A stretch of DNA of 32,000 nt. Source: Candidatus Saccharimonadota bacterium (lineage in GTDB: Bacteria > Patescibacteriota > Gracilibacteria > Absconditabacterales > Absconditicoccaceae). The stretch is taken from assembly GCA_030429145.1 (NCBI GenBank), contig JAUIDC010000001.1, forward strand, positions 360,001 through 392,000, read 5' to 3'. Shown in pieces: positions 1 through 32,000 of this stretch (position 1 is the first letter of the stretch; the number at the start of each line of letters is the position of its first letter). The position numbers and the translations under genes are program-made. Under the pieces are notes generated by a model. The model saw only the letters and a program-made list of their open reading frames with translations, made no database searches and was not told the DNA's origin.

Positions 1-538
1 TAGACTTTGTACGAGGAATGTTGTTAAATGACTTTATAACGATCTCGTCCTTTTCAGGCATAACAATAAGCGTCTTATTGTTGCTTAGCCCAATCTTACC
101 AAGAACGCTTGCAGCGTCCTTTGTCTTGATAGCCTTCAACGGAGTTGCCTCGAGCCCCATAAGTTGCTCGTTCTTAGCCTTGAGAGTAATGATACCACAC
201 AATGCAAGCTTCTTCATCTTCTTGTTCATTGTCTTAGAGTGGTTCACATCATTTCTTGGACCAAAAGCAACACCTCCATGTCTTCTGATTGGAGAGCTAG
301 CCTCACCCACTCTTGCATTACCAGTTCCTTTCTGTCTGTAGAGTTTTCTACCAGACCCCGTTACCTCTGCTCTTGTCTTTGTGTGAGCGATAGGATGACG
401 AGCGTTTGCCTGTTGCAGGAGAAAGAACTCATGAATAAGGTCGTCGTTGATTCTCTCATCATTGAAGAGAGCCTCATTGAGCGACAACTTCCCCGTTGCC
501 TTTCCATCTTTATTGTAAACTTGTATTGTATATGTCAT
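1..538 (-). CDS. rplD: 50S ribosomal protein L4 (3' end runs off the window)
   Basis: Minus-strand ATG at 538..536. Hand translation MTYTIQVYNKDGKATGKLSLNEALF...TGSGRKLYRQKGTGNARVGEASSPIRRHGGVAFGPRN matches the L4 core. It follows rplC in S10-operon order. It is absent from the ORF track because it is open at the window edge. No in-frame TGA. Confidence 0.9.
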   Translation of the reverse strand, partial: MTYTIQVYNKDGKATGKLSLNEALFNDERINDDLIHEFFLLQQANARHPIAHTKTRAEVTGSGRKLYRQKGTGNARVGEASSPIRRHGGVAFGPRNDVNHSKTMNKKMKKLALCGIITLKAKNEQLMGLEATPLKAIKTKDAASVLGKIGLSNNKTLIVMPEKDEIVIKSFNNIPRTKS

Positions 539-573
539 TGTTACATACCATCGGAAGAATAAATACTATATGA

Positions 574-1155
574 TTATGCGTAGAGCGAAAGAAGACTATT
601 GTATGCCCCTGGCACAGACCCTTTCACTGCGATAAACTTATCATCTCCAATAGTGAGAATATCAACTACTGGTCTTTCATGAAGCGTTACTGTTTCAAGT
701 CCCATGTGACCCGCATGAGGATGTCCTTTCTGAACTCTTCTTGGCTTTCTATTACCCAAAGAACCTACGTGTCTATGGAATTTAGAACCATGAGTCTTAG
801 GACCTCCAGCAAGACCAAATCTTCTGATAGCACCCTGATATCCTTTACCCTTTGAGACGCCAGTCAGTGAGACCTTTTCAACACCCTCAAGAAGAGAAAC
901 GTCAACAGCCGTACCTGCTGTAAACTTTTCTTTGAACTCATCACTTACAGGGAACTCTTTCATCCAAGCGTAAGCGATCTTTTGCCCCTTTTCTTTCTGG
1001 AGTTCTTTCTTGCCACCCGCTAAGATAGCAGCCTCATATCCATCCTTTTCTTGGGTCTTATATCTGACCACCTCCTGTGGAACAATCTGCAATAGCGTTA
1101 CCGCCGTATGCACATCATCCATCCAGAGCTTCGTCATCTCTTTTTTTCTGACCAT
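574..1155 (-). CDS. rplC: 50S ribosomal protein L3
   Basis: 193-aa track ORF containing ...GVSKGKGYQGAIRRFGLAGGPKTHGSKFHRHVGSLGNRKPRRVQKGHPHAGHMG..., typical of L3. It lies between rpsJ and rplD. No TGA. Confidence 0.93.
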   Translation of the reverse strand: MVRKKEMTKLWMDDVHTAVTLLQIVPQEVVRYKTQEKDGYEAAILAGGKKELQKEKGQKIAYAWMKEFPVSDEFKEKFTAGTAVDVSLLEGVEKVSLTGVSKGKGYQGAIRRFGLAGGPKTHGSKFHRHVGSLGNRKPRRVQKGHPHAGHMGLETVTLHERPVVDILTIGDDKFIAVKGSVPGAYNSLLSLYA

Positions 1156-1235
1156 TAGTCAACCTTTATTAGCCATTGGTGTTAGAAATATTTTTTAGAG
1201 TAAAACATTCATCTTTATGCACTATCTTGTATTCT

Positions 1236-1556
1236 TTAGAAAACCTTCACCTCTACAGACACACCAACAGGTATTGAGAGATTTTGAAGATATTCTATCG
1301 TCTTAGGTCCTGTTTCCACCACATCAATGAGTCTTGCATACGTGGTTCTCTCAAACTGCTCTCTTGCATTTTTATAGACAAAGTTTGATCTAAGCACAGT
1401 ATACAGCTTTCTCTGTTTTGGAAGCGGGATTGGCCCTTTCATTTTTGCTCCTGACTTCACAAGAAGGCCGATGATTTTGCTTGCTGAGTTCTCAAGCATT
1501 TTAACATCATAACTCTTCAGTTTAATTCTGAGCTTTGGAGATTTTGCTTCTGCCAT
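1236..1556 (-). CDS. rpsJ: 30S ribosomal protein S10
   Basis: 106-aa ORF with LRIKLKSYDVKMLENSASKI...GPIPLPKQRKLYTVLRSNFVYKNAREQFERTTYARLIDV, an S10 signature. It lies immediately downstream of tuf. Confidence 0.93.
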   Translation of the reverse strand: MAEAKSPKLRIKLKSYDVKMLENSASKIIGLLVKSGAKMKGPIPLPKQRKLYTVLRSNFVYKNAREQFERTTYARLIDVVETGPKTIEYLQNLSIPVGVSVEVKVF

Positions 1557-1668
1557 ACCAGTTGTTGTTGTGAGGAAAACTAAATATTTTTATAGTAGAC
1601 ATAGACACAGAGAGGAGCTTGTTTCAGCCCCACTCCGCAATCCAACCATCTACATTATGATTATCAAA

Positions 1669-2841
1669 TTACTCGATGATCTTAGTGATAACTCCGGCAC
1701 CAACAGTTCTACCACCCTCACGGATAGCAAATCTGAGACCTTCTTCCATAGCGATCTTGTAGATAAGCTCTACGTTGATCTTAGCGTTGTCACCAGGCAT
1801 GATCATCTCTCTTCCTTCTTCGAGAGAAACAGAACCTGTTACGTCAGTTGTTCTGATGAAGAACTGAGGCTTATAACCAGACATGAAAGGAGTATGTCTA
1901 CCACCCTCTTCTTTCTTAAGCACGTACACCTCTGCTTCGAACTTCTTGTGAGGTTTTACAGAACCTGGCTTAGCAAGAACCTGACCTCTTTCAACTTCGT
2001 CTTTTTCAACACCTCTAATAAGAAGACCTACATTCATACCAGCAGCAGCGCTGTCATGTTGCTTGTGGAACATTTCAACACCAGTAACTACTGTTGCAGT
2101 AGCTTCGTCCTGAAGACCTACAATTTCAATAGGATCATTCATATTGATTGTACCTCTTTCAATTCTACCAGTAACTACAGTACCTCTACCCTTGATAGAG
2201 AATACATCTTCCACTGGCATAAGGAAAGGTTTCTCTGTGTCGCGAACCGGCTCTGGGATATAAGTATCAAGAGCATTGAGAAGATCCCAAACACATTTAG
2301 AAGCAGCCTCATCAGTTGGATTTTCTGCAGCCTTAAGAGCAGAACCTCTAATGATAGGAGCGTTAGCACCGTCAAATCCGTTGCTAGTAAGAAGATCTCT
2401 TACCTCTTCTTCTACAAGGTCAATCATATCTGCATCATCAACCATATCACACTTGTTGAGGAATACAACGATATGAGGAACATTTACCTGCTTAGCAAGG
2501 AGTACGTGCTCTCTTGTCTGAGGCATTGGTCCGTCAGTAGCAGCAACCACGAGGATCGCACCGTCCATCTGAGCAGCACCTACAATCATGTTCTTCACGT
2601 AGTCGGCATGACCTGGACAGTCGATATGAGCATAGTGTCTGTTCTCAGTTTCATACTCTACGTGTCTTGTATTAATAGTAATACCTCTCTCCTTTTCTTC
2701 TGGAGCGTTGTCAATAGCAGCATAGTCATGTGCTTTTGCAAAACCTTTTGTAGCAGCTACTGAAGTAATAGCAGCAGTCAAAGTTGTCTTACCATGATCC
2801 ACGTGACCAATGGTACCTACATTAACGTGAACTTTAGACAT
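1669..2841 (-). CDS. tuf: elongation factor Tu
   Basis: Track ORF 1669..2874 trimmed to the ATG at 2841 ([26 protein letters not shown]...DCPGHADY...NKCD...). 390 aa. All glycines are GGN and there is no TGA. Confidence 0.97.
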
Positions 2842-2940
2842 GTTGGATGAATATGTATAAAATGTAAATAACAAATAAGATGATGTATGACGGGCAACGA
2901 TTGGAGTTGCACCATCGTTTTCCCATATAATGTTGTAATC

Positions 2941-3513: not shown

Positions 3514-4113
3514 ATGAGTTCTCCTCAAGAACAAACACTTGCTACATATAATATGCACGCAGACACATATAGGGAAAATACTATTGATGCTGTTATATGA
3601 GTGCTAAAATATCGAATTGATGAAACCCTCAAAGATCTCCCAAAGGATACAAAGATTTTAGAGGTAGGCACAGCTACTGGTAGAGACGCAGATTATATGG
3701 AGAGTCTTTGATACCACGTCACCAGAAGCGATGCCGCCGATAGTTTCATCTCCTATCAAAAAGAACAGGGAAAACAAATCATATCATATAATGCCCTTAC
3801 CGACACCTTACATACCAATTACGACCTCATTTTCGCCAACGCGGTACTACTCCACTTCACGCCAACGCAGTGCAAAGACGTACTACAACACCGAAAAGAA
3901 CACCTCAACCCCGGCGGAAAGATATCACGATGTGTTCAGCAATGACAATGAGAAAGTATGAAAGATAATAAATGAATGGAAAGATATTTTTATTATTGGT
4001 CGCTGGATGAGGCAAAAAAGTTAATGGAAGAGCTAAAATTCTCCTCCGTACGTGCCTGGGTAGATGAGCCAACACCAAATAGATTTCGAATTCGCTGCAT
4101 TGCAACATTATAA
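3514..4113 (+). CDS. class I SAM-dependent methyltransferase
   Basis: The reading frame is continuous only if 5 TGA codons are read as Gly (199 aa). Motif I is ILEVGTATGRDADYMESL-G(TGA)-YHVTRSD, followed by YDLIFANAVLLHF and HLNPGGKIS. It is invisible in the standard-code track. Confidence 0.8.
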
Positions 4114-4137: not shown

Positions 4138-4566
4138 ATGATCTCTCAAACACCCCGAGAAGGATTCTCACCAAAGTTTGAAGTTGTAAGCTGTTTCGTG
4201 GAACACGACGGACATATATTATTGCTACAAAGACAATCCCACAAACCACAGCCCAACACCTACGGCGTACCAGCTGGTAAAGTAGACGACCAAGAAGATA
4301 TCCATCAAGCTATCAAGAGGGAGGTCGGAGAAGAAACCTGAATTGACCTCTCTCATGCACACTACTTCACAAAGTTATTTGTACAATACCCCGACTATGA
4401 GTTCATCTATCATATCTTCTCTGCCTCGTTTGAAGAAAGACCAGAAGTAACAATAAATAGCGAGGAACACCAACACCATGTATGGTTGCCACCACATAAA
4501 GCTCTCGAGCTTGAACTCATCCAAGACGAAGACCACTGCATAAAACTTTTTTACAATATTGCATAA
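4138..4566 (+). CDS. Nudix hydrolase
   Basis: Track ORF 4138..4341 continues through the TGA at 4339..4341 to the TAA at 4564..4566 (142 aa). The Nudix box GVPAGKVDDQEDIHQAIKREVGEET-G(TGA)-IDL is completed by the TGA-encoded Gly. Confidence 0.88.
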
Positions 4567-4579: not shown

Positions 4580-5296
4580 ATGTTAAGAACGCTAGCGACT
4601 ATCTCACATATCGAATACTCTCCTTCTCAAGAAGTCACTTTTGTCAGGTGTGTGCCTGAACATAGATTTACTTTCGAAGAAGGCCAATTTCTTATGGTAG
4701 AATCTGTTTTTAATCACGCAGAGCTCGGAAAGCCTCTGAAGAAGCCCTATAGCATCGCGACGACAAATAAGGAACTACAAGAAAAAGGAACTGTTGGGTT
4801 TATTGTCAAAAAGACAATGGATGGATATATGTCAGACTTTTTGACAAAAGGAATCACCATCGGCACGAAAATTGTCTTGACGTGACCAGCTGGACACATG
4901 ACAGATGACGGCACAAATAAGAAATACCTCTTCGTCTCGACAGGAAGTGGAATTTCCCCTATGGTTGGACTATACAATGAGCTATCTCTCAATTCCGAAA
5001 ATAAGATTGTCAACATTTTTGGCGAAAGACATCATCGTCATATCTTGCCAAGTGTCGAGACGCTCTTTAGTCGTAACGATGATCATGTCGAGAACATTCT
5101 CTTCCTTTCTCAAGATGAACACACCCTCTATAGGTCAGGACATGTCCAGCTATGACTAGACGAAGCGCTCCGCTCATTGGGAGAGGCAGACATAACCGTC
5201 TTTGTTTGTGGTAGCCCTCTTATGGTTGACGATATCAGACAGATGCTGACAGAAAGATGATTTACGAAAGATCAGATCAAGTACGAAAAATACTAG
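4580..5296 (+). CDS. FAD/NAD(P)-binding oxidoreductase (ferredoxin-NADP reductase-like fold)
   Basis: Track fragments 4559..4885 and 4898..5155 share one frame and are joined by TGA. The frame continues through two more TGAs to the TAG at 5294..5296 (238 aa from the ATG at 4580). Motifs: KKPYSIAT (RxYS-type FAD site), G(TGA)PAGHM, LFVSTGSGISP, VFVCGSPLMV. Confidence 0.75.
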
Positions 5297-5580: not shown

Positions 5581-5626
5581 TTCTGTTAGCTTTTGGTTCA
5601 GTCTGATTATACTATTTTTTTCATTT

Positions 5627-5937: not shown

Positions 5938-6633
5938 TTACAATAGCTCTTTCATATTATCTTTTCTCCATTTTTCTATCTCGGCATGGTGACCGCTGAG
6001 AAGAACATCTGGCACCTTATAGCCCATAACCTCTTCCGGTCTCGTATATTGTGGAAATTCGATATTATTCATGTTTTTTTGCGGATCATAACTCTCTATC
6101 AGATGGCTCGCCTCCTCTTTGATAACTCATGGTATCAGCCTTGCTATCGATTCTATAGCAACCATCGATGGAACCTCTCACCCTAGCGTTACAAACTGCC
6201 CTAGCGACACTTTTTCAAAATGATCACCATATGTATCATTCATATATTCTTCAAATCTATAATCTATTCCCTCGTAACGACCGCACACAAAGACAATATC
6301 CTCCAACCTCTCTGCATATCCATACGCCAACTCCTGGTTAAATACCTTCTCCGACGGACTCATATATATAATCTTCCATTTTTCTCCTTTCGTAAGGTTA
6401 TTCTTGGCAATAATATCTTCTACGGCGTCTATCACTGGCTTTGCCTTCATAAGCATCCCTGCTCATCCACCATATATCTCATCATCCACCTGCTGGTGCT
6501 TGTCAGAACAGAAACTACGTGGATTGCTAAATGAAAATGATAGCAGTCCATTTTCAACCGCTTTACTCATCAATGACGTAGTAATAAATGACTCGTAGAT
6601 CTCCGGAAAGATCGAAACAATATGAAAACGCAT
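5938..6633 (-). CDS. trmD: tRNA (guanine37-N1)-methyltransferase TrmD
   Basis: ATG at 6633. Translation: [16 protein letters not shown]...VDDEIYGG-G(TGA 6463..6465)-AGMLMKAKP...[14 protein letters not shown]...[10 protein letters not shown](TGA 6178..6180)[17 protein letters not shown](TGA)-VI...[32 protein letters not shown]. 231 aa, TAA at 5938..5940. Confidence 0.93.
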
Positions 6634-7605: not shown

Positions 7606-8892
7606 ATGCACTTGCGCGAAGAATTGGAGAAACGTGGGTTTTTGTATCAGCACACGAGTGAAGCATTATTTGATATATATGATAAAGGAGGTGAAACCTT
7701 CTACTTTGGGTGTGATCCCACTGCAGATAGTTTACACCTAGGAAATTTCGTCGTATTTATGAATGCGGTTAATTTCATGAGACGTGGAAATAAACTGATT
7801 ATGGTCGTAGGTGGAGAGACAGGCATGATTGGAGATCCAGGTGGCAAAGACGCAGAAAGGACGCTCCTCTCGCAAGAGACACTCGACCACAATATAGAGA
7901 AGATAACCGAACAGGTTGGTTTCATTTTGAACAACCTTCAGACGATATCAGGAGAAGAATTTAGCTTCGAAGTCGTTAACAACCAGGAATTTTATAAAAA
8001 CATGAGTTTCTCTGGGTTTTTGAGAGAGGTTGGCAAGTATATCACTGTCAACCAGATGATGAATAAGGAGACAGTCAAAAAAAGAATAGAAGACCCTAAT
8101 CAGTCTATCTCATTTACTGAGTTTAGCTATATGCTCCTCCAGGCCTATGATTATCACTGCCTGCATACACAAAAGGGCGTCAATCTACAGATAGCGAGTT
8201 CCGACCAATGGGGAAATATCGTAACTGGCGTGGAACTCATTGGCAAAAAAACTGGAGACGAGGTCTATGGGATGACCGGCCCGCTTATTTTAGACGCCAC
8301 AGGCAAAAAATTCGGGAAGTCTGAAGGAAATGCAATCTGGCTTAGTACAGAGAAAAACTCTCCGTATTTTGTCTATCAGTACTTTATGAATACGGCTGAT
8401 GAGGATGTCGAGAGGTATTTGAAGCTGTTTACGCTCCTCAGCCTTGATGAAATTGCAGATATTGTAAAAACGCACGAACAAGACGCTTCGGCAAGAAGTG
8501 GCCAGCGCGCACTCGCTCAGTACGTTGTTCAGACGATATTTGGCAAGCAAGCTGCTGAAACGGCTGAGAAGATAACAGAGATACTCTTTGGTAGCGAAGA
8601 AAGGATTGCTCTGCTCACATCTATGAATGAAAATGAGATAGCTGCGCTCAAGGCAGAAACAGGCGGCATAAAGCTAGAAACGCTACCTATAAACATTTGC
8701 GATGCCATCGTAGCCAGCTGACTAGAAAGCTCTAAAGGGAATGCAAAAAAAGCGATAGAGTCAGGCGCAATCTATCTTAACGAAGAAAAAGTGACATCCA
8801 TTGACACCAATATACAATCCGACCACTTGATTAATGGTCATGCCGCCCTTCTCAGAAAGTGAAAAAAGAACTTCAAAATTCTCTCACAATAA
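7606..8892 (+). CDS. tyrS: tyrosyl-tRNA synthetase
   Basis: Start taken at the ATG at 7606 (the track starts at the TTG at 7591). Contains a class I HIGH-like motif (DSLHLGN) and KFGKS (KMSKS). The track ORF stops at the TGA at 8719..8721. Reading on gives the missing S4-like C-terminal domain AS-G-LESSKGNAKKAIESGAIYLNEEKV...LLRK-G(TGA 8860..8862)-KKNFKILSQ, ending at the TAA at 8890..8892. Confidence 0.95.
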
Positions 8893-10364: not shown

Positions 10365-13300
10365 TTACTGAGACCAAGTGAATGGGAAGTTACCAGTATT
10401 CTTGTATGATGCTGCGTCTGCTACAACTACATCACCATCATTAAGCTTATCAAGGTATCCAACTGAGCTAACAGTTGCACCCATTGGGTTAGCTGTTGTA
10501 CCATTCAATGTTGCGATTGGGTTAAGAACCTTAACAGAGAATGTTACAGTAGAACCGTTTGTGATTTCTACTACGCTATCAAGCTCAACTGAACCTGCAG
10601 CACCAGAGTAAACGAGGTCACCACCAAGACCATTCTTGTAGATATTGATGAGATTACCTGCGTTACCACCAGTTACGTTGATAAGGTCAACATTAGCACC
10701 AGTTACCTGAACTCTGTTACCCTTAGCAGTTACGTCAAATCTAGCGAACTCAGTAGTAGAAGGAGTGATATTAACCTTAGCTACAGATATTGCACCTCTA
10801 ACGATCTTAGTTGACTGAGAAACAGCAGTTGATGTTCCAGCTACTGTAGTCACAAGCTGACCGTTTGATTTAGAGATAGCTCTAATACCGTTCTTCACAC
10901 CTACAGCTGCATTAGTGATACCACCAGTTGCTACTGAGAATGTGAATCCAGTAGTCACATCAGAAGTACTAGTTACATTGCTGATATCAGCCTTAACTGA
11001 GTAAGTCTTAGTCTGTGACAATGGAAGTTCATTGTTAGACATGTTCTCGAATGCGATTACACCATTTCTGATTGTACCGAACCAAGAGTTTGTACCGTCT
11101 GTAAGCTGAACATTGTTGATCTTGTTAGCAAGTGTTGTACCAAGACCACCATTTGTTGCGAGATATAGATCAGTAATGTCTGTTGCATCTTTCTGTCCTT
11201 CGAGGTTGAACTGCGCAACTGTTACGTTTTGCTGACCACCGTAAAGGAGTTGAGACTGAAGTGATGAGTTAGCTGCAACTTCGAGAGTAGCAGAACCATC
11301 GATAGTAAGAGCACCACCAGCAACGTCAGATACTGAGATAGTATTAGATGTTACAGTGTCTACTGCGTCTACATCAGTAAGAGTAAGTCTGAGGGTACCA
11401 GTAGCACCAGCAGTGAAGTTACCTCTTACAGTCCAAGATACTGGGTTGTTCTTAGACACGTTGATGTTAAGACCGAAGAATGTTACCTTACCATTGTTGT
11501 AGTTAGCAGTCTTCACAGCGTTACCGTTTGCATCGTAGAGTGTTGCAGTAAGGTTGCTGTTAAATGCTGCTGCAGGAACGATACCAGTAGAAGTCGCACC
11601 AGAAAGTGTGAACTGGCTGATTCTAATTGGGTTATCCTGAGATGTTGAGAACGTAGCACCGAAGAGGAGCTGATTCTGAGCACCATTTACAATAGATTGG
11701 CTAGAGATACCATCGTTTCTTGTTACAGCGAGGTTAGAAGCTACGATAGAGATAGTAGCACCTTCAATAGAACCTACTGCAGCAGAAGTCTGGATAGTAT
11801 TCTGGTTGTTCTGATACTCTTTGATAGAGAAGTCAGAAAGTTGAAGAGGACCAAACTTGATGTTAGAAGTTCCAGCGTTAGACTTGATGTCTGCTGTCAA
11901 TTCTACCTCAGCAGTACCATTGATAGCTACAGCACCGTCAAATGAAGCATTTGAAAGACCTGTACCTGTGTCTGCTGACCAAGTAAATGTAGATCCACCA
12001 ATTCTCAACTTGTAAGAGTTAGCGATGTAGCTAGCTCCTGTAGAAGATGTGAATGGAAGAGTGAAGTCCTCAAGGTATACAGGAGTCTTAGAAGAGATAG
12101 TACCCTTCATAAGTACTGCATTGTTTACACCAGGAGAAACAGTGTTAGAGAGAGCAAATGATGAATCTCTCTTAAACATTACGTCTGCACCATTTACAGT
12201 GTAGAGTGGAAGGTAAGCTGTACCACTGATTGCAGCTCTGAACGAAGTAGTTTTTTCAACTACGTTAAGCTCAGAAGTGTTCTGCAGTCTGAACTGATAT
12301 GTATCACCGCTTGTGTTGTCAACGTATGTTACATTAGCTCTGATGTAGTAAGTAGCGTTCTGACCATCTTTGATCTCATCACCGGCACCAAGACCGAATG
12401 TGATCTCTTTACCATTCATTACAGTCACTGTAGAAACTTTTTGTCCGTTTCTGTAGAGAGCTACATCTGAAAGGTTGATAAGGTCACCGTTACCTTCGTT
12501 TCTCAAAGTAACAGACTTGAAGAGAAGATCTCTTTCATCTGTACCAGTAGAAACATCGCTAAGTCTGAACTGACCAAGCTCAAGATTGTCTGCATCACTA
12601 GCAGTTGCAGTAAGACCTGCACCAGCTCCTGTGAATGTTACAGTTGAAACAAGGTAGTTAGCTGTTCTAAGAGTAGGAGTTGAGATCATACCAACTACGT
12701 TAGCAGCAGAGCTGTTAATTTCAGTTGATGTGAACATGTGCTCTCCTCCAGGTGAACCAGCAGTCATGTCAACATACAGATCGATAGACTCAGTTGTACC
12801 TGCAGCGACTACTCGTGCTGGTGCAAAACTAAGAGTTACTGTTTGATCTGAGCTAACGCTAGCTCTAGAAGAGATTCTGATACCATCTTTCTCGAAGTAT
12901 ACTCTGTCGATGTCAGACGAGTTTCCAAGTCCGCTTCTCTTAAGAGTAACTGAGTTGATAGTAATGTTCTTAGAACCTGCTGTAAAGTCTACTGTAGCGA
13001 ACTTCACTGAACCTCTCTGAGGTACAGATGTAAGGTTTGCTGGAGACGCAGAGTTCATTGAGATATTGAGGTTACCTTCTTTTACTACAGGAGGATTAGT
13101 TGTTCCTGTACCGTTCCCTGGCTGGCAGAGAGAAGGATCAATATCACAAAGACCATTGTTGTCGATTGCCAATCTGTAGAGCATGAGCATCATGTCACCT
13201 CTAAGGATTGACTGACTAAGCATAGCGTACTTCATGATTCCCATAGAATTGAGAAGCTCGAAGTGAGCCTGCTCAGATGACATAGGATCGATTTCACCGA

Positions 13301-14135: not shown

Positions 14136-14206
14136 CAAGAGAACCAGGGATCGAACCTGGGCCTTCGGCTTCGGAGACCAACGTGCTACCATTACACCAT
14201 TCCCTT
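14136..14206 (-). tRNA. tRNA-Arg (anticodon CCG)
   Basis: Cloverleaf: acceptor aagggaa/ttctctt (A1-U72, one G-U pair), D arm gtgt-aatggta-gcac, anticodon stem ttggt/gccga with loop ctCCGaa, T arm ccagg-ttcgatc-cctgg, discriminator G. 71 nt, no encoded CCA. Confidence 0.8.
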
Positions 14207-19448: not shown

Positions 19449-21761
19449 ATGGCAGATCAACAAAACCCAATACAAAAAGACGATCAAACAAATCCCGCTA
19501 CTCAAGGGAACCCAACCAATGACGACAACACTCCTATCAACGACTGATTGGGGGATATTTCATTGGATGGAGATGCTACTAGCGATTCTTCCGCAACTCA
19601 GGAAGATGATACGTCTGTGGCTCCTGCAGCCGAAAATGCTGATAGCGAGGCTCAGCCAGAGACGCCAGCTGAAACAAAGACAGACATCTCAGATCTAGGC
19701 GATGTTCTGCTCGACCAGTCTGCAGACGATGCTCAGACACAAGACGAGACAAGCAATGTAGCGGCCCAGGATGACACTGAGAATTCAGCGTCTATGGAGA
19801 ACAACTCTGAAGATGTCTCACCAGCAGCACAACCTGAAACAGGAAGTGAACCTGAGGAGCCAAAGCCTGCTAACAGTCAAGAAGATCCGACAAAGATTGA
19901 TCTCGGAGATATCTCTTTGCCTTCCAATGATGAGAATGCACCACAGGGAGATAACAAGAGTAGCTCTCCTGAAAATGATAGACCAACTGGTATGTTTCAC
20001 TCTCCCGATGAGGAAACTCCAGCTCCATCTGCAGAGACGCAATCTGAAAATCAGATAGAAGGAAGCACTAATGAGACAGAAGGAGCCAAAGGAGAGCAGC
20101 CGGTGAGCGCAAATGCTGAAGCTATGCCTGAAATTTCACTTGATACTGTTCCGGCTGCACCTGAGCCAGCGCCAGAAGCAAACGCAGACGCAAATACAGA
20201 AGTTGCCAATGATCTTCCTCCTGTAGACCAACCAACAGAAACAGATAAGACTGAGACTGAGGGACATCTTTTCAAACAGCCTGATGATGAGACCCAACCT
20301 ACTGAGGAGGCTCCAACTCCTAGCGAGGAACCATCAGAGATGACTCAGCAGCCAGAAGCTCCTGTCATGACTGAAGAAAATGAGCCAAAAATCACCGATG
20401 AAAGCGAAGAGTTTCCTACTGAAATACTCAATCAAGAAGTAAGGGAGGAGGATCCTCAAGCAGAAACAGAAGAGACAGAGGGAATGCATGAGGAAGTAAA
20501 AGACGATAACAAGAATGCTAATATGGAAAACCAAGAAGCATCAGCGGAAGAAGCAGTTGAAAAAGATGCTACTCTTGAAGCCAGCGAAAATAATACAGAT
20601 GGAAACGAGGCCACAGAAGCCACACCTGAAATTAAAACCGAAGAAAACAAAGAAGAAAGCAACAATGTCATGATCAATCTCGAAGACGAAGAAAGTAAAG
20701 AGGAGACAGAAAACGAAGAACTTCCTACTCCTGAAGCAACAGCAGAGACTCCAAGTAGCGATGAATCAGACCCTTTAGTCGACGACCTTCTTAATAATGA
20801 GTGAACAAAAGTTGCCGAGAATAATACAGAGGAACAGCCAGAGACAGTATCTGAAACGCCAACTAATGATGAATCAGATCTTACGTTTGACTTAGATGCG
20901 CTTACTGGAGATCTCGAGTGAGGAAGCTCTGGCAACAGCGCAATTGCGGAGGCAAACAAAGAAGAAACGACAAACGGAGACGAAGAAAATCAGGAAGCTG
21001 TAGCGACGGCCGAGCAGCCAGAAGAAAAGCAAGAACAGTCAGAACAAGAAGCAATAGCTCCTACAAATGTGGCTGAAGAACCAGCTTCTCAAACAAACAA
21101 TCCACAACCAGCTACTACGTCTGTCCCGCTACCAAACGCGACCGTAGTACAATCAAAGCCAAAAAAGGGATCGCCTAAAAAGAAGGCTATCGCTATGGCT
21201 GCAGCATTTGTCATGCTTCTCGTTGTCGGAGGATTTGTTTTTACTACCATGATGCCCGAAGAGTCTGATAGCCTCATGGCTAACATATTGGGCTCGTCTG
21301 ACAATGACTCTAGCCTTACTCCTGAAGTTCCTGTACAGCAAACAACTATTCCAACTGACAATACATCTACATCAACACCGACAAACAACATAGACAACAC
21401 TCAGCCCCAGACACCTGAAACGACCAACACCACTACTGAAACTCCTGTAAACAATATTGAACAGCCAACAACACCAACGGTTACTATAACAATGGATCAG
21501 GCAAAGAATGCACTAGGACTCATCGCTCACAACAGCAAGAGAAGCCTAGCCGACGCTCTAAGAGCAGAGAATCAGGAAATATCAGAAAGACTATATAGCA
21601 TCTTTAAAGAAAGTTCAGCTCTCTTGGAAACCCTTGCAAACACAAGTGACATCTCTACGATAGCAACAATAGAACAGCAAATTGCAGATTTGCAGGGCGA
21701 TTTACTTGACGCTATAAATACTTTGGATGCCGAAACCAGCAACAACGCTCAGTCTCAGTAG
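19449..21761 (+). CDS. very acidic low-complexity membrane protein (N-terminal D/E/T/P/Q-rich region, one TM helix, C-terminal helical domain)
   Basis: The ATG at 19449 is in frame with track ORFs 19548..20804 and 21069..21761, joined by TGAs at 19545, 20802 and 20919. 770 aa with a TAG stop. A basic patch KPKKGSPKKKA precedes the TM helix IAMAAAFVMLLVVGGFVFTTMM. The motif D-I/L-S/G-L-D recurs (GDISLDGD, DISDLGDVLL, IDLGDISLP, EISLDTVP, LTFDLDALTGDLE). Confidence 0.7.
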
Positions 21762-21762: not shown

Positions 21763-22632
21763 ATGATAAAAAAATTTCAAACGTATCTCGAATACGAAAA
21801 AAACGTTAGTCCAAAAACGTACGAGAACTACACGCTCCGACTGGGGCGTTTTTTGCAACATACAGGCGATGTCAATGTGAAAGAGATCACCTCTCTTGAT
21901 GTTCTCGACTTTAGACAACAGCTTACTAAAAGAAAACTCAGTAAAAAAACTATAAACTATCATATCGTTGCCATCAGAGCGTTTCTCAAATTCTGCCTCA
22001 AACACGATATCGACGTTATCTCTCCGGACAAACTCGAGCTTGGAAAGACCCCACCAAGGGTAGTAAGTTTTCTTGACGAGTCAGAGGTGGAACTCATATT
22101 GTCTATGCCTGCACAATGGGAGACAAAGAACGACCTCAAAAGACTCAGAGACGAGGCGATACTCCTTGTTCTTTACGGGACAGGCCTACGTGTCAGCGAG
22201 CTTATTTCTCTCCAAAGATCTGACATTAAGTTCAATAGCAATCAGTTCCGAGTAGTCGGAAAGGGACAAAAAATGAGATCGGTCTTCTTCACTAAGCGCG
22301 CCAGAGAAAAACTTGAAGAGTATCTCGGTGCTAGAAGTGATGAAAGCCCACACCTTTTTATCAACCTCAGCAACTATAAGTGAGGAAAGTGACTCACAAG
22401 GAATGCAGTGGAGGACATCGTAAGAGAGTATGCACGTAAAGCTGGGATCGACAAAAAAGTAACACCACATACCCTGCGTCATACCTTTGCGACATCTCTT
22501 CTCAAAAAAGGCGCTGATATCAGGTCGGTACAAACCCTTTTGGGACACTCGTCTATTACGACCACTCAAATATATACCCATGTGGACGACAAATTTCTCC
22601 AACAGGTACATAAACTCATGGACGACGAATAA
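21763..22632 (+). CDS. tyrosine recombinase XerC/XerD family
   Basis: ATG at 21763. Track ORFs 21727..22383 and 22408..22632 share one frame and are joined by two TGAs (NYK-G-GK-G-LTRNAV). Motifs: [53 protein letters not shown] (R...HxxR...Y). 289 aa. Confidence 0.88.
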
Positions 22633-23142: not shown

Positions 23143-23847
23143 TTAGGTATGTCTTCCTATGACTGAGCCCCATATAGTTAGCTTAGGGAAGCTCTTTTTC
23201 AGACATTTGGCTGCTTCCTGTATAGTTGATCCTGTAGTAGTGACATCATCGATAAAAATAATCAGCTCATTTCACATAAGAGTTATTCATTTTCTCAGTG
23301 AAAAGACTCCTTCGAGATTTTTTAACCTCTGCTTACGGGAGAGAAATGCTTGGATACGAGTGTGTCTTTTTTTAGTCACTAACGGTTGATAGGGAATATT
23401 GAGATTGGATGCAACTGCTTGAGCCAAAAGCTCGGATTGATTGTATCCTTTCGTGAAGTATTGTCTGTATCGGTGAGAAGGGATAGAGGAGATAATAGTC
23501 TTTTTTGTATGAGATAATTTTTGCAATGTGCGATTCGTTTGTATAACCAGTGCTAAGCGATCCGCGAGGAAAGATGCCACGTCGTAACGATGATAGTATT
23601 TGAGCTGTAAGATAAGTTTCTTGAGAAGATCGCTGTAAGCAAATCAGATAGCAATACCCTGATAGGCTGCCTCTCTTTGATAGTCTATGTGTACTTGGAA
23701 ATCTGGTGAGAAACGATGAGAGACTGGGCAGATTTCGGGGTGGGGCTGAAGACGCTTTCTACACTGATGACAGAGATAAGAGTCTTCGCTTTCGCAGCCT
23801 ATGCAGACTACGGGAAAAATATATGTAAGAATAGTTTTATATCGTTT
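23143..23847 (-). CDS. comFC: ComF family protein (ComFC, phosphoribosyltransferase-like); start codon unresolved
   Basis: Track ORF 23287..23580 extends in both directions. The N-terminal zinc-finger region reads IFPVVCIGCESEDSYLCHQCRKRL. Then come ...SIPSHRYRQYFTKGYNQSELLA...RIQAFLSRKQRLKNLEGVF and the PRT motif LIIFIDDVTTTGSTI, ending at the TAA at 23143..23145. 3 in-frame TGAs. The upper boundary given is the first codon after tRNA-Val. There is no in-frame ATG/GTG/TTG upstream of the CxxC motif. Confidence 0.75.
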
Positions 23848-24054: not shown

Positions 24055-25128
24055 ATGCGTATTGCTTTTGCCTGAGGTTGAACGTGAGGACACGTCTTTC
24101 CTATCAGGTCGCTGATACAACATATCGATTCACACCCGCAATACAAGGAAAAAGCCGAGTCGATGATCTGGCTGGGTGAGCGCGGAAGCCTTGAGGAGAG
24201 CGTCGCAAAAGAATTTTCTGATGTAACATTTGTACGCATCGTTGCTGGGAAGATAAGAAGAAAACCATGAGCAAAAGAAGCTATACAGAACTTCCGTGAT
24301 CTGCTTTTCGTGAAGATAGGAACAATCATGGCCTGGCGGCATCTGTTCACAAAGGATATCGATGTTATCTTCTGTAAAGGAGGGTATGTATCTCTTCCTG
24401 TCGTACTCGCCTGAAGAATATTAAAAAAGAAGATTATCCTACATGAGTCTGATACAAAGGCCGGACTCGCAAATAGAATCTGTGCAAGATTTGCAACTAC
24501 AATCTTTACCGGATTCGAAGGAGTCTTCCCAGAAAAAGAAATAGTCGTTGGACAACTATTGAGTGACGATCTTATTCCAGAAGATATAGACGATTATAAA
24601 AGAGACGAAAAGACACATATTTTAGTTTCATGAGGCTCACAGGGAGCAGAATCTGTTTATAGGCCCCTTGCGGCGCTTATCAAAAAAAACGCCTACGTGA
24701 AAAGCCACTTTTACGTCATTTTAGGAACAAAAAATAGTGGGCTTAAACATCTTTTTGAGGGTCTGCAGAACGTTACATGCTATGATTTCGTGAGTCAAAA
24801 GGAGATGGGGGAACTTCTCGCAAAATCTGATGTTGCTTTGACTCGTAGTGGAACGACCTCTCTTGCAGAGCAAAAGCTCTTCGGATTAAAACTTATTATG
24901 ATCCCCATCCCTCGAACTCACGACCAGTTTAAGAACGCTCAGTATTATGTCAAACACTATGGTGATATATTGGTGGGTCAGGACGAAAGCTTCACTCTTG
25001 CATTGCCAGCTGCATTGGAGAAGGTACAAGGCTACAAGAAAACCAATGAGATGGCACTCATTTCTCAGCAGATAAGAGAGGCGAAAGATATTGTCTGTGA
25101 AGAAATATTTAAAACAAAAGGCGGTTAG
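24055..25128 (+). CDS. murG: undecaprenyldiphospho-muramoylpentapeptide beta-N-acetylglucosaminyltransferase MurG
   Basis: ATG at 24055. MRIAFA-G-G-G-T-G-GHVFP, in which the TGAs at 24073, 24079 and 24085 supply three glycines of the GGGTGGH loop. It is in frame with track ORF 24697..25128 (…SDVALTRSGTTSLAEQKLFGLKLIMIPIPRTHDQFKNAQYY…). 6 TGAs, 357 aa, TAG stop. Confidence 0.93.
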
Positions 25129-25129: not shown

Positions 25130-26674
25130 CTATCTTTGTTCTACAAACATGTTCTTGCTTCTATACTGCAAAGCCTCTGCAACGTGCTCCAGCAGCACGT
25201 TTTCTTTTTGTTCGACATCTGCTATGGTGCGAGCGAGCTTGAGAGAGCGATGCACGAGGCGAGTGGAAAGGGATAGTCTTTGCGCAGCCTGCTTCATGAA
25301 TGCTTCTGTCTTCTCATCGAGCTGTACATAGCGAGAGAGCGTCTTCGCTGAAAGCGATGCATTTGATGCAATGGTTGTTTCTCTATACCTGCTTTGTTGT
25401 CTCTCCCAAGCAGCACGGACCTCCTCGCGAAAGGAGATTGAACTCCTTTGCTCTGCTTTCTCGAAGATAGTCTCTATGCTCTCACGAGGAATCTCCAAAA
25501 CTATATCGATCCTATCGAGAAGCGGGCCAGATATCTTTGACTGGTAACGAGCAATCTCTGCCAAGGAACACGAGCAGGGCTTTTCACGATCTTTGTAGTA
25601 GCCACACCTACATGGATTCATCGCAGCAACAAACATGCACTCTGCCGGATATTTTACTGATCAGGCTGCACGCGAGATAGTTATCTGCTTTTCCTCCAAC
25701 GGCTGACGAAGCACCTCTAGACTCTCGCGAGGAAACTCAGTCAGCTCATCGAAAAAGAGCACTCACTTGTGCGCGAGGCTGATCTCGCCCGGGTGCAGAT
25801 GAGGACCTCATCAGGTGATAGCTATCTTGCTAGCCGTGTGATGCACGGCGCGAAACGGGCGAGTGCTGATCAAAGGTTCATCTTTGGTCAATCTCCCGAC
25901 GAGCGAATAGATCTGGGAAACTTCTATCATCTCGTCAAAGCTGAGCGGAGGGAGGATCGAGGCGAGCGCTTGCGCGAGAAGCGTCTTTCCTGATCAGGGT
26001 GGTCACACCATAAGCATGTTATGTCATCCAGCAGCAGCAAGACAAAGTGCACGTTTTGCGACAAGATGTCCCCTTATCGAAGAAAGGTCCACAGAGGCCT
26101 CTTTCTCTTTCGCCTTTATTCTAATGTGCGAGGCAGAACAAGAGTTCAACATCTTCCCCTTCACAAAAAAATCTACAATATCACGAAATGTCGCAAGCGG
26201 AAAAACCTTTATTCCATTTACATACTGCAGTTCAAATACATTCTCTTCAGGAACAAAAAATGTCGTGTACCCGAGCTTTCTAGAAGCAAGCACCGCTGGC
26301 AAAAGTCATTGCACTCTCCTCACCGAACCATCCAATCCAAGCTCTCCAAAGAAAAGAGACGAGGACAGCATGTCTACATGACAAATGTGTCAGCAAAAAA
26401 GAAACAATACAGCAACAGCCATAGGAAGATCAAACTGAGTGCCTGTCTTTTTGATGTCCGATGGGGCGAGATTAAGCACAATCTTCTGTGGCGGGATAGA
26501 GATATCTAAATTGCGAAAAGTGGAACGCAAACGTTCTTTCGCCTCCTTAACAGCCATATCTGGTAGTCCGATAATCTCTATAGTCGGCAATGCTTTATTT
26601 GCATCAGCTTCTATCGTTACTTCATGCCCATCAAGTCAAAAGAGCGCAAAGGTTTTTACTAGGCTGTGTGTCAT
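25130..26674 (-). CDS. comM: Mg-chelatase-like ATPase ComM/YifB
   Basis: ATG at 26674. Track fragments 26390..26590, 26024..26302 and 25130..25636 share one frame and are joined by about 10 TGAs. Walker A reads NMLMV-G(TGA 26003..26005)-PP-G(TGA 25994..25996)-SGKT. Further motifs: [20 protein letters not shown] and Walker [18 protein letters not shown]. 514 aa. The TAG at 25130..25132 is 1 nt from the murG stop (convergent genes). Confidence 0.92.
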
Positions 26675-26859: not shown

Positions 26860-27792
26860 ATGGCAGAAATTGTTGTATTGTGACACAAATCACCAGATAC
26901 TGACGCTATTTGTTCAGCGATCGTGTGGACAAATTATTTGAAGAGCATGGGTGCGGATGCTAAAGCAATCAGGCTTTGAAATCCAAATTTTGAGACAAAG
27001 TTTGTTCTTGAGAAAGCTGGGGTAGAACTACCTGAGCTAGTTGAAGAACTACCTGAGGGACAAAAGATCGTCCTTACCGATCACAACGAGGCAGGACAGA
27101 GTATCAGTAATAGAAACAACTATAAGATCATTGGTGTCGTTGATCATCATAAAGTGTCTGACTTTGAAACAACAGAGGCGGTAGCTATGAGAGTAGAGCC
27201 CGTAGGTTGCGCTTGTACAGTTATGTATGCTATGTTTCAGGAGAAAGGATTTACTCCTGACGCAGTGACAGCTCGCCTTATGATCTCTGCTATCATTTCT
27301 GATACGCTTTACTTCAGATCTCCTACTACGACAGGGATTGATCGCAAAGCAGTTGAAGAGCTCAACAAGATAGCACAGATCGAAGATCTTGAAGCTTACT
27401 CTATGGAAATGTTCAACGCTAAGTCAGACCTTGGAGATATCTCTATCAGAGACCTCATCACTATGGACTACAAAACATTTGAGGCAGGGGATAAAACATT
27501 TGGTATCGGCTCAGTGGAAACAACAAATCCTGATTTTGCTCTTTCAAAAAAAGAGGAAATTATAACCGAACTGAACAATCTCAAAAATGAACAAAATCTC
27601 GACTTTATCATGCTATCCATCGTAGACATCCTCAACGAAAAGAATACTACCATCGTAGCAAACGAAAACGACGCCCAGGTGATAAAAGAGGTTTTCTGAG
27701 CGGAAACCCACGAATGACTTGCTGACCTCGGCAATAGAGTTTCAAGAAAAAAACAACTCGCTGCTCCTTTATCTGAATACTATATTGGGTAA
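26860..27792 (+). CDS. ppaC: manganese-dependent inorganic pyrophosphatase (family II, DHH)
   Basis: ATG at 26860. MAEIVVL-G(TGA 26881)-HKSPDTDAICSAI...VLTDHNEAGQS...GVVDHHK, in frame with track ORF 27154..27699. It continues through the TGA to the TAA at 27790..27792. 310 aa, 4 TGAs. Confidence 0.9.
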
Positions 27793-27798: not shown

Positions 27799-28068
27799 AT
27801 GATCTATTTTCTACTCTACCTCCTTATCATAAACGTTGCTACTTTTTCCGTGCGAGGAGTGGATAAGCGGAAAGCTAGCAAAGAGAAGAGGAGGATCTCA
27901 GAGAAAAATTTATTGCTCCTTAGCGCTCTTTGATGACGACTTGGGGCAGCCGTCGGAATTCAATTTTTCAGACATAAAACCATTAAGGCGACCTTTGCCT
28001 GGAAGATATGGTTTATCATAGTAACGCGGATTATGATCTCATTTATTCTGATGTATTATCTGCAGTAA
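27799..28068 (+). CDS. DUF1294-family small membrane protein
   Basis: 89 aa: MIYFLLYLLIINVATFSVRGVDKRKASKEKRRISEKNLLLLSAL-G-G(TGA TGA 27931..27936)-RLGAAVGIQFFRHKTIKATFAWKIW... This matches the DUF1294 pattern (DKxxA...RIxExxL...GG..G...RHKT.K). Confidence 0.75.
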
Positions 28069-28085
28069 TTTCACCGATCACTATT

Positions 28086-28564: not shown

Positions 28565-28580
28565 CCCTGCTAAAGCAGGG
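28565..28580 (-). terminator. rho-independent terminator of the thioredoxin-like gene
   Basis: Hairpin ccctgc-taaa-gcaggg, followed on the minus strand by ttttatt. It lies about 40 nt after the stop at 28620. Confidence 0.6.
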
Positions 28581-28619
28581 TAATAGAAGAAAAAGGCAAG
28601 TTGTTGTTATTCTCTGAAC

Positions 28620-30448: not shown

Positions 30449-30634
30449 TGATTTTTTCATAAAGCTATCTAAATCCTTCTCTGCTTTTGCCGAAGATATT
30501 TCACTCTCCTTGTCAGATATTTCCTTGATAGTAGGTATCTTTTCGTATGATTGCAACGCTTTCTTTTTCATCTCTCTTATCTTTTTAGAAGAGACGTGCT
30601 GGCGCTGTGTTCATGATATATATACCTCATTCAT
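30449..30634 (-). CDS. small hypothetical K/E-rich protein
   Basis: The ATG at 30634..30632 overlaps the pilT TAA by 1 nt (TAATG). 61 aa with one TGA. Its TAA lies 3 nt before the next gene's ATG. Supported only by this tight coupling. Confidence 0.35.
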
Positions 30635-31716
30635 TATCTTCCCATCGTATTATTGAGGATAAATGATACTGTTTCAGCGGCAACGATTCCCTTTTCTACC
30701 AGTCTTTGTGCGTACTGTTTCATAGAGATCATTCCCGAACTATTGTTTGTTTCGATAATATTGTCAATTTGTGAGATAGCGCGTTTCGCTATGTTGTTTC
30801 TTGTAGCGAGGGTATTAACCATAAGTTCAAACACTCCCACTCTCGATTTTCCGTCAGCCGCTTTCACGAGGAATTGAGACTGCACTCCGATAAGAGCATC
30901 AGCTAAACGGTCTGCGACACTGTCTTGGATTTCTGGAGAAAAGAATGACATAAATCTATTTACCGTCAACGCTGCTGATGAAGTATGCAGAGTAGAGAAA
31001 ACCAGATGCCCTGTCTCCGCAAGAGAGAGCACTGACTCTGCTGTTTCTTTATCACGAATTTCTCCAACAAAAATGACATTCGGGTCTTCACGCATCGTTG
31101 ATCTCAATGCATTCATAAACGACCACGTATCGTGACCAACCTCTCTTTGTGAGATAATTGACTTGTCTGCCTTGAAAATAAACTCAATAGGATCCTCGAT
31201 GGTAATAATGTTTTCGGCTCTGGTTGAGTTGATGTGTTCTATCATAGAAACGATAGAGGTTGACTTACCTGACCCAGTAGGACCTGTCACAAGCATAAGA
31301 CCTGTCTTCTTTGCGAGGATCTTTTGCTTGATAGTTTCTGCAACGTCTGAGAACATCAAATCATTCAACTCTTTTGCAACGGAGTTAATCTTTCTCATGA
31401 CGATTCCGATTTTTCCGAGCTTGAAGTAAGCATTGACTCTGTACGGAGTTCCGTCCATAGAAACATACGAAAAATCGGCTTCCTTGTCACCAACGAACTT
31501 CTCATATGCTTTCTGATTTCCCTTCATAAGGTGCTTAAGCATGATTTCTACATACTCTTCAGCAAGCTTACTTGTTTTCTCATACTTTTGTATTTCTCCA
31601 TTTACACGGAAAGAGATATACTCATCTGATGAGATGTGGATGTCAGAGACCGCTTCGTTAGAAGAGATTTTCGAGAGGATCGCCTCGATATTGATCTCTT
31701 TTTCAAAATTTACCAT
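30634..31716 (-). CDS. pilT: type IV pilus retraction ATPase PilT
   Basis: 360-aa ORF with Walker A LVTGPTGSGKST, IITIEDPIEF, MREDPNVIFVGEIRD and GHLVFSTLHTSSA. No TGA. Confidence 0.9.
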   Translation of the reverse strand: MVNFEKEINIEAILSKISSNEAVSDIHISSDEYISFRVNGEIQKYEKTSKLAEEYVEIMLKHLMKGNQKAYEKFVGDKEADFSYVSMDGTPYRVNAYFKLGKIGIVMRKINSVAKELNDLMFSDVAETIKQKILAKKTGLMLVTGPTGSGKSTSIVSMIEHINSTRAENIITIEDPIEFIFKADKSIISQREVGHDTWSFMNALRSTMREDPNVIFVGEIRDKETAESVLSLAETGHLVFSTLHTSSAALTVNRFMSFFSPEIQDSVADRLADALIGVQSQFLVKAADGKSRVGVFELMVNTLATRNNIAKRAISQIDNIIETNNSSGMISMKQYAQRLVEKGIVAAETVSFILNNTMGR

Positions 31717-31748
31717 CCTTTTGTTTTATAGAGAATAAACATACTTAA

Positions 31749-31777
31749 AGTATACTCTTCTCCTAGAAAATTGTCAA
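31749..31777 (-). promoter_or_regulatory. sigma70-type promoter for pilT (TTGACA-17 nt-TATACT)
   Basis: Minus strand: TTGACA (31777..31772), a 17-nt spacer, then TATACT (31754..31749). It is about 30 nt upstream of the pilT ATG. Confidence 0.6.
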
Positions 31778-31796
31778 AAAACTGTCGGCTATTTAC

Positions 31797-32000
31797 CTAC
31801 CCCCACAATTTCGCTATTCACAGTGTCAGAAAAACAAGTATAGTATGCGTAAACGACGAAATGCCGCTTATTTTCTGCGTTGTTTGATAGTTTTCCATCA
31901 ATCTTTTTCTAAATTCCTTCGTAAAAATCTCTTTTTTTAGTAGATCTTCCAAATAGTCCATGTTTTCTTGTATTTGAGGAAAGTAGCTCATATATGTGGC
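31797..32000 (-). CDS. hypothetical protein, 3' end (or a short ORF from the ATG near 31991)
   Basis: The frame is open from the window edge: ...YMSYFPQIQENMDYLEDLLKKEIFTKEFRKRLMENYQTTQKISGISSFTHTILVFLTL-G(TGA)-IAKLWG, ending at the TAG at 31797..31799. No family recognised. Confidence 0.3.

Follow-up and report, generated by a model that had tools for sequence, protein, structure and literature searches.

Gene content of the window

The DNA considered here is a 32,000-nucleotide stretch of contig JAUIDC010000001.1 (positions 360,001 to 392,000; hereafter the window, with coordinates counted from its first letter), and the subject is the genetic code of its genes, in which the stop codon UGA appears to be read as glycine and two codons of the CGN box, CGA and probably CGG, as tryptophan. 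The window, with a guanine-plus-cytosine (GC) content of 41.8%, corresponds to positions 30011-62010 of the Logan contig ERR3428547_4287 (127,872 bp), which its EF-Tu protein matches residue for residue; the contig DNA examined spans positions 21679-71726, about 50 kb of the 127.9 kb. Genes were curated from Pfam matches and with translation ending at TAA and TAG alone, giving 28 genes and 9,028 codons that are the basis of every count. A greedy selection of open reading frames (ORFs) with two stop codons chose some antisense shadow ORFs, and the curated models were used for the counts instead.

The curated genes include those for ribosomal proteins L4 and L3, EF-Tu, an S-adenosylmethionine (SAM) methyltransferase, a Nudix hydrolase, a ferredoxin-reductase-like (FNR-like) oxidoreductase, TrmD, TyrRS, KsgA, a 1,116-residue surface-layer-like protein, ComEC, a pyruvyl transferase, a 787-residue secreted protein, an acidic 770-residue protein, XerC, ComF, MurG, ComM, a DHH pyrophosphatase, a DUF1294 protein, a thioredoxin-like protein, two pilin-like proteins, PilT and a few hypothetical proteins. 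The window also encodes five tRNAs (Pro, Ile, Phe, Val and one with the anticodon CCG, nominally Arg), and an Rfam scan of it returned, beyond tRNAs, no RNA family at threshold.

UGA as a sense codon

In-frame TGA is present in 19 of the 28 curated genes, 86 codons in total (9.5 per 1,000), and TAA or TAG interrupts none of the 28. Of these genes, 27 reach their 3' end inside the window, finishing with TAA (22) or TAG (5) and never with TGA. Only UAA and UAG terminate here, and UGA is a sense codon. The original prediction, made from the letters of the window and its ORFs, had spoken of dozens of genes interrupted by TGA alone; the absence of internal TAA and TAG stands, and the count of 19 makes the number a mild overstatement. 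All 14 TGA coordinates that it named are in-frame TGA codons in the motifs to which it had assigned them.

It had also claimed that reading through TGA restores full-length proteins, and both domain continuity and ORF coverage bear this out. The Pfam domains Mg_chelatase, tRNA_m1G_MT, Glyco_transf_28 and Competence run uninterrupted from end to end over the TGAs; the Mg_chelatase match, covering 1-205 of 207 positions, spans seven of them, with an eighth lying six codons ahead of the domain. Coverage by non-overlapping ORFs of at least 100 residues rises from 0.60 under NCBI table 11 to 0.85 with TGA as sense. The comparison of ORF lengths between tables that the prediction had proposed gives the same picture: in another run, whose ORF cut-off was 60 residues, those of at least 300 residues number 5 under table 11 and 12 once TGA is sense, while freeing TAA or TAG instead leaves just 5-6 and brings no comparable gain. 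Gaps of 400 nt or more without an ORF fall from 9.5 kb to 3.3 kb, so that the earlier estimate of about 5 kb turned coding was of the right order of magnitude and slightly low. No table-11 ORF within 15.7-19.3 kb exceeds 191 residues, and the one at 16611-17186(+) does not have coding-like codon usage. Codon-usage log-odds, on the other hand, back the long TGA-containing frames without strong homology, and over 16880-19243(-) the codon-usage log-likelihood ratio is positive in the 787-residue frame only.

The residue at UGA

The identity of the residue was approached with an unspecified residue, X, at every TGA, because circularity was to be avoided. Among 25 TGA codons that could be placed on columns of solved-structure homologues from standard-code organisms, 16 fall on Gly, 4 on Ala, 5 on other residues and none on Trp; against a Gly background of 7.5%, 16 of 25 has P ~1e-12, and chance is therefore excluded. 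The earlier claim that the TGAs sit on invariant glycines is imprecise at one of the sites that it named, the first TGA of the MurG G-loop. MurG (24055..25128(+)) has six TGAs, those of the G-loop at 24073, 24079 and 24085, which in order align with Ala, Gly, Gly, a variable column, Ala and Gly in three PDB MurGs; position 24073 is thus Ala in all three structures, and 24079 and 24085 are Gly. In ComM, a Mg-chelatase-like AAA+ protein (25130..26674(-)) with ten TGAs, including some in Walker A and Walker B, the columns of structure 8rxd are 7 Gly, 2 Ala and 1 Ser. The three TGAs of TrmD (5938..6633(-); two of them at 6463 and 6178) are all Gly in three TrmD structures. For the Family II (DHH) inorganic pyrophosphatase (26860..27792(+)), the four columns read Gly, Gly, Asn and Asp/Asn, and for TyrRS (7606..8892(+)), with two TGAs of which one lies at 8860, they are one Gly and one Glu, the segment LLRK-x-KKNF pairing with LLRRGKKNY of E. 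coli.

Further support comes from the ribosomal-protein operon adjoining the window. At three of its four TGA sites, 11-17 standard-code bacteria invariably have Gly; the remaining site, next to a gap or indel, is GGN in both closest genomes. An apparent pairing of a TGA in L24 with Pro was discarded as a gap-adjacent misalignment.

Relatives point the same way. Eighty metagenomic ComM relatives (54-60% identity) all contain in-frame TGA, between 1 and 23 each with a median of 9, and at 8 of the 10 TGA sites of the target they have GGN or TGA exclusively; TGG never occurs at any of these sites among the 80. None of these relatives is syntenic with the window, and they bear on the ComM TGA sites only and not on CGA or CGG. 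In the Absconditicoccaceae metagenome-assembled genome (MAG) JBAQPP01 (L004), 164 of 206 TGAs pair with GGN in the target. In the two closest genomes, both of the Absconditabacterales (L004 and L003), TGA exchanges with GGN and in no case with TGG, and when they are set against standard-code bacteria the residues paired with TGA are distributed like those paired with GGA and GGT.

Pfam scores with X, Gly or Trp placed at the TGA codons complete the comparison. Gly outscores Trp by a total of about 127 bits across 13 domains, and over those 13 plus two FNR-like domains it exceeds X by about 107 bits; Trp mostly scores below X. In the order X, Gly, Trp, the NUDIX domain of the Nudix hydrolase (4138..4566(+); TGA 4339-4341 in the Nudix box REVGEET-G) scores 65.7, 69.9 and 66.3 bits, TrmD 158.5, 167.6 and 153.6, SYY_C of TyrRS 54.4, 61.5 and 52.5, and the N-terminal domain of MurG 67.3, 79.3 and 62.9. 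The corresponding values are 274.9, 298.1 and 268.6 for Mg_chelatase of ComM, 134.1, 140.7 and 128.9 for Competence of ComEC (14192..15709(-); 6 TGA, 10 CGA, 1 CGG), 63.5, 72.5 and 61.6 for the DUF1294 membrane protein (27799..28068(+); TGA at 27931 and 27934 in the motif L-G-G-W; 2 CGA, 2 CGG), and 20.7, 40.3 and 21.7 for PS_pyruv_trans of the CsaB-like polysaccharide pyruvyl transferase (15804..16790(-); 11 TGA, 6 CGA), a frame that codon usage also backs. The assignment of UGA to glycine is supported because these four independent lines of comparison agree: structure columns, ribosomal-protein glycines, TGA/GGN exchange and Pfam bits.

Two other accounts of the TGA codons share some of this evidence. 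Table 4, as used by Mycoplasmatales and several endosymbionts, would make UGA tryptophan; it captures the same stop, shows the same fragmentation under table 11 and restores ORF lengths as table 25 does, and one methyltransferase family gains 3.3 bits with Trp. Set against this are the absence of Trp from all 25 PDB columns, the lack of any TGA/TGG exchange in the 80 ComM relatives and the deficit of ~127 bits, all of which show Gly here and not the Trp of Mycoplasmatales and insect endosymbionts, and we regard table 4 as very improbable. Less credible still is that UGA remains a true stop, the in-frame TGAs being pseudogene lesions, assembly errors, selenocysteine sites or sites of programmed read-through. 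The look of the genes under table 11 speaks for it, and nothing more; yet the 86 sites lie in 19 genes without other lesions, no gene ends at TGA, essential genes are hit (TrmD, TyrRS, MurG, L3), and relatives across many samples keep TGA or GGN at these sites. Nor does selenocysteine suit columns that hold Gly or a small residue, rather than Cys or Sec, in 19 unrelated genes. The Pfam, column and exchange data therefore exclude table 4, pseudogenes, selenocysteine and read-through as explanations.

CGA and CGG codons

The clearest evidence for a second departure from the standard code comes from a photolyase/cryptochrome-family gene on the same contig, 8.6 kb past the window (positions 2-1114 on the plus strand of the piece L002, equal to window coordinates 40603-41715(-)), whose N-terminus is cut by the end of the examined DNA. 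It contains 9 CGA, 1 CGG and 3 TGG codons, and was aligned to four distinct photolyase structures with X at all of them. Five CGA codons fall on columns that are Trp in all four structures (W277, W316, W359, W382 and W384 of E. coli photolyase), and a sixth on a column that is Trp in three, so that 6 of the 9 CGA codons lie on Trp columns; the probability of at least six Trp columns out of ten by chance is ~1e-9. Conserved Arg columns in the same motifs are encoded by CGT, AGA or AGG. Thus 'CGA CGT' corresponds to W-R of the motif ELAWREF, and 'GAC CGA CGT CGA GGG GAG' to D-W-R-x-G-E. W359 and W382 of the E. coli enzyme are part of the electron-transfer Trp triad.

Within the window, substitution of Trp for Arg in Pfam domains gave a consistent result. 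The score of W minus that of R, per codon and in the same domains, averages +0.3 for CGA/CGG (n=23), +0.55 for TGG (n=16) and -2.1 for AGA/CGT/CGC (n=50), so that CGA and CGG resemble TGG and not the true Arg codons. In ComEC, six of the seven CGA/CGG codons in the domain, including all six CGA, score higher as Trp, and the Competence score is 149.1 with all CGA/CGG as W, compared with 117.1 when the true Arg codons are made W. Replacing R by W at CGA aa47 in the 'GG-x-LGA' motif of the DUF1294 protein adds 4.5 bits, and at CGA aa127 of the SAM methyltransferase (3514..4113(+); Methyltransf_23/12/25/11; 5 TGA, 4 CGA) it adds 2.5-3.1 bits in three families. The secreted 787-residue protein (16880..19243(-); 20 TGA, 8 CGA, 5 CGG) has a signal peptide, an LTD-like segment, a long coiled coil and, twice, a lamin-tail-like motif of the form EW/EY-IE-L. 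Its LTD match appears solely with CGG aa85 as Trp (27.2 bits, E = 5.5e-6, a sub-gathering score), and with CGG as Arg the protein has no Pfam match; no homologue of it was found in 1.1 Mb of related contigs.

Other genes were less telling. CGG in KsgA, ComEC and DUF1294 is near neutral between Trp and Arg. The PDB alignments of KsgA and of XerC, a XerC/D-type tyrosine recombinase (21763..22632(+); Phage_integrase; 2 TGA, 2 CGA), are uninformative because the columns at CGA/CGG are variable (H, S, Y/L/D and V/N/R), and the ribosomal proteins say nothing on the matter because they hold just 2 CGA and no CGG. When homologues were sought for the DUF1294 protein, its suspect positions masked, no candidate came back.

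A candidate tryptophan tRNA for CGG

Shulgina and Eddy (2021; PMC8629427) predicted that Absconditabacteria read CGA and CGG as Trp and gave as a rule for the tRNAs involved a discriminator G73 and no A20, supported by A/G1:U72; a 2026 paper (PMC13092985) treats the CGA/CGG-to-Trp reassignment as given. The window encodes a tRNA with the anticodon CCG at 14136-14206(-), labelled tRNA-Arg(ccg) by ARAGORN, whose boundaries and structure were taken from the Rfam tRNA model (61.3 bits); the ARAGORN span, 14135-14207, is one base too wide at either end relative to that model. It has A1:U72, G73, a D-loop AAUGGUA that by the Rfam alignment places U20 where A20 would be, and an anticodon stem of 5 bp that includes two G-U pairs. 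By the published rule, A1:U72, G73 and U20 make it a tRNA of the Trp type, and it probably decodes CGG as Trp. Identity elements were used because overall similarity hardly separates Trp from Arg, the best Trp match standing at 0.72 against 0.68 for the single Arg tRNA.

A similar tRNA occurs on contigs L083-L089, which carry the closest ComM relatives. At about 12160-12330(-) these have a homologous tRNA(UCG) with G1:U72, G73 and U20, lying ~20 nt from tRNA-Trp(CCA); their genuine tRNA-Arg(CCU) has A20 and A73. By its sequence and position, the tRNA(UCG) looks like a tandem duplicate that would read both CGA and CGG as Trp. No tRNA(UCG) was found in the ~50 kb of contig examined.

Weighing the readings of CGA and CGG

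On these grounds we consider it very likely that CGA is read as Trp, and likely, with somewhat less assurance, that CGG is too. CGU and CGC stay arginine, and the CGN box is split. If CGA and CGG are Trp, then about 52 codons of the window encode tryptophan and not arginine. The combined explanation, of a member of the Absconditabacteria with UGA as Gly and with CGA and probably CGG as Trp, is one that we hold with high confidence.

A number of observations weigh against it. The clearest CGA evidence, that of the photolyase, lies outside the window, albeit on the same contig; in that gene the CGG is Trp in only two of four homologues, and the CGA at aa360 is Arg in two. The MurG CGG at aa95 pairs with Arg in the two top-scoring MurG structures shown, and reading it as Trp costs 2.8 bits; CGA/CGG sites in KsgA and MurG score somewhat higher as Arg, losing 1-3 bits as Trp. 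CGG is the sparser of the two, with 10 codons in the window and fewer sites than CGA. The identity of tRNA(CCG) is read from marks in its sequence. As regards UGA, a tRNA with the anticodon UCA was not found among the five window tRNAs, in the ~50 kb of contig examined or in ~1.1 Mb of related contigs.

The Arg-like sites in MurG, KsgA and photolyase, along with the anticodon-based ARAGORN label, are what plain table 25 would lead one to expect, with UGA as Gly, CGA and CGG still Arg, and tRNA(CCG) an unusual tRNA-Arg. That account must nevertheless pass off as coincidence, at ~1e-9, six photolyase CGA codons on near-invariant Trp columns whose neighbouring Arg residues are CGT, AGA or AGG; it is also at odds with the Pfam controls, where CGA/CGG behave as TGG does and unlike true Arg codons, and with a tRNA(CCG) that lacks A20 and carries A1:U72 and G73. 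We judge it distinctly unlikely. A mixed or transitional decoding, in which CGA is Trp and CGG, or a subset of sites, is partly Arg or ambiguous, has a little more in its favour: CGG looks like Trp in the LTD motif and in two of the four photolyase homologues and like Arg in MurG, the score barely shifts in KsgA, ComEC and DUF1294, and the published survey (PMC8629427) notes that some Gracilibacteria differ in reading CGG. It sits poorly with a window that appears to encode a dedicated Trp-type tRNA(CCG), and with only 10 CGG codons, chance can be expected to yield Arg-like pairings at individual columns of moderate conservation; we think it improbable, if less so than plain table 25. Ambiguous Arg/Trp decoding is entertained at all because MurG aa95 and photolyase aa360 are still on Arg columns. 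That the lineage represents an unusually advanced, GC-independent stage of the CGA/CGG reassignment, with residual ambiguous decoding as a living intermediate, is a speculation that we offer as doubtful. The reading that we prefer remains Trp for CGA and probably for CGG.

Clade placement and relation to known codes

EF-Tu (1669..2841(-)), which contains no TGA, CGA or CGG and served as the anchor for source and taxonomy, is 76-77% identical to its counterparts in two Absconditabacterales MAGs of GTDB and at most 71% identical to all others. The two MAGs are named Candidatus Absconditabacterales and Candidatus Absconditicoccaceae, and both share with the target the gene order tRNA Phe/Ile/Pro-tuf-S10/spc. 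A neighbour-joining tree built on 3,203 columns, from EF-Tu together with 16 ribosomal proteins, clusters the target with them; it is crude in that it has few taxa and no support values. Over these 17 proteins the identity is 61.5% to the two MAGs and at most 46.8% to any other lineage, including four other Patescibacteria. Judged by these proteins, the organism falls within the Absconditabacteria (candidate division SR1), in the order Absconditabacterales of GTDB class JAEDAM01; it is uncultured, and divergent in view of the ~61.5% identity to its nearest GTDB representatives.

Table 25 is assigned to SR1/Absconditabacteria and Gracilibacteria BD1-5 (Campbell et al. 2013; Rinke et al. 2013; both cited in PMC8629427 and the gTranslate preprint), and the literature gives UGA=Gly as the code of exactly this clade. 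The original prediction named Absconditabacteria and Gracilibacteria as the only known users of UGA=Gly, in keeping with this literature, and the window lies in that clade; the finding is therefore correct and already known. It is the known code 25 in its known clade, not a novel one, and more precisely the extended form predicted for Absconditabacteria. With table 25 the window shares glycine at UGA, UAA and UAG as sole stops, the clade and the tRNA-tuf-S10 order, and with respect to UGA there is no difference. The label "table 25" given in the prediction accordingly holds for UGA and is incomplete, since CGA and probably CGG appear to be read as Trp; this change and its tRNA(CCG) had been overlooked.

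The extended form closely resembles the code that Codetta predicted for Absconditabacteria (PMC8629427), with CGA on conserved Trp columns, CGU and CGC as Arg, AGA as the main Arg codon, and a tRNA(CCG) having G73, no A20, A1:U72 and a 5-bp anticodon stem. Some differences are evident. GC content is 42% here, compared with 0.26-0.38 in the reassigned clades of that survey. CGA amounts to ~47 per 10,000 codons (UGG 63), compared with '<37 in all species' in PMC8629427, although the measures differ, ours covering all codons of the curated genes and theirs aligned Pfam domains. Even at 42% GC, CGA is nearly as frequent in the window as UGG (42 vs 57 codons).

The contig offers clean comparative support for a CGA-to-Trp reassignment, through invariant motifs in which a CGA for Trp stands beside a CGT for Arg, together with a putative Trp-type tRNA(CCG). 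To our knowledge, that reassignment otherwise rests on computational prediction only, and the whole of the evidence for the code presented here is likewise comparative.

For annotation the consequences are immediate. In the public Logan gene calls on this contig, TrmD is 92 residues long and Nudix 67, an AcrB-like protein is in four pieces, and ComM, MurG and the pyrophosphatase are also stored as fragments. Evidently these calls were made with the standard code, and protein databases therefore hold truncated versions. Table 11 breaks 19 of the 28 genes; table 25 mends the UGA problem and still gives Arg at ~52 window positions that would be Trp, as well as at the catalytic tryptophans of the nearby photolyase. 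The value of the window is thus chiefly for annotation; scientifically, as a known code in a known clade, it adds little.

Codon usage and proposed decoding

UGA makes up ~14% of the glycine codons in the window, and its distribution is far from even. In L3, L4, EF-Tu and the surface-layer-like protein TGA and GGN number 1 and 178, as compared with 85 and 353 in the other genes (Fisher P = 7.5e-13). Genes whose expression is presumably high, such as those at 10365-13715(-), 1669-2841(-) and 1-538(-), strongly avoid TGA. A weaker trend holds for CGA/CGG against TGG, with 1 vs 8 in the same four genes and 51 vs 49 elsewhere (P = 0.03). The main Arg codon is AGA. The nearest-relative MAG JBAQPP01 shows the opposite for TGA, which there is the main Gly codon even in EF-Tu (17 codons) and L2 (23), whereas in the target it is a minor one and near-absent from highly expressed genes.

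The derived code would have UGA as a sense codon for Gly, UAA and UAG as the only stops, and a split CGN box with CGA and probably CGG for Trp and CGU and CGC for Arg. By analogy with those members of the clade that have been described, UGA would be decoded by a tRNA-Gly whose anticodon is UCA, expected to have G1:C72, C2:G71, G3:C70 and U73, and release factor 2 would have been lost. CGA may be read by a Trp-type tRNA(UCG) like that of the related contigs, and tryptophanyl-tRNA synthetase would charge both the CCG and the UCG tRNAs.

Other features of the window

L3 (574..1176(-); Ribosomal_L3) has a single TGA, and the FNR-like oxidoreductase (4580..5296(+); FAD_binding_6 and NAD_binding_1) has three. 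The surface-layer-like protein of 1,116 residues (10365..13715(-)), for which the Logan annotation records a faint SLH match, has 107 GGN codons, no TGA and one CGA. The 770-residue protein (19449..21761(+); 3 TGA), which has no family match, is of low complexity, extremely acidic and rich in E, T, P, N and Q, with a C-terminal membrane segment, its one hydrophobic stretch lying near residue 600, and a structured C-terminus; its gene gives rise to a local AT skew of +0.34.

The ComF-like phosphoribosyltransferase (23143..23841(-); 3 TGA), with weak matches to DZR_2 and Pribosyltran, has an uncertain start codon. Its open frame (23143-23925(-)) passes straight through the gene for tRNA-Val(GAC) (23849-23925), and the 20 codons that follow that tRNA include no ATG, GTG or TTG; the start may be ATT.

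With two stop codons, long shadow ORFs arise antisense to genuine genes at 11169-13532(+), 19379-21805(-) and 1513-2871(+), of 788, 809 and 453 codons with 22, 20 and 2 TGAs, respectively. A gene caller set to table 25 could choose them, and our greedy selection did take the ORF antisense to EF-Tu. Under no code does a convincing ORF appear in two intergenic gaps of 550-640 nt, at 5297-5937 and 28069-28619, and Rfam gives no match there at the gathering threshold; both gaps are unusually long for so compact a genome.

Genes for DNA uptake and pili are dispersed across the window: ComEC at 14192-15709, here without a beta-lactamase domain, ComF at 23143-23841, ComM at 25130-26674, two small T4SS-pilin-like membrane proteins at 29132-29506(-) and 29514-29999(-) that match T4SS_pilin and have 1 and 2 TGAs, and a PilT-like ATPase at 30634-31716. 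Such a scattered set of uptake and pilus genes is as expected in an episymbiont or predator of the candidate phyla radiation.

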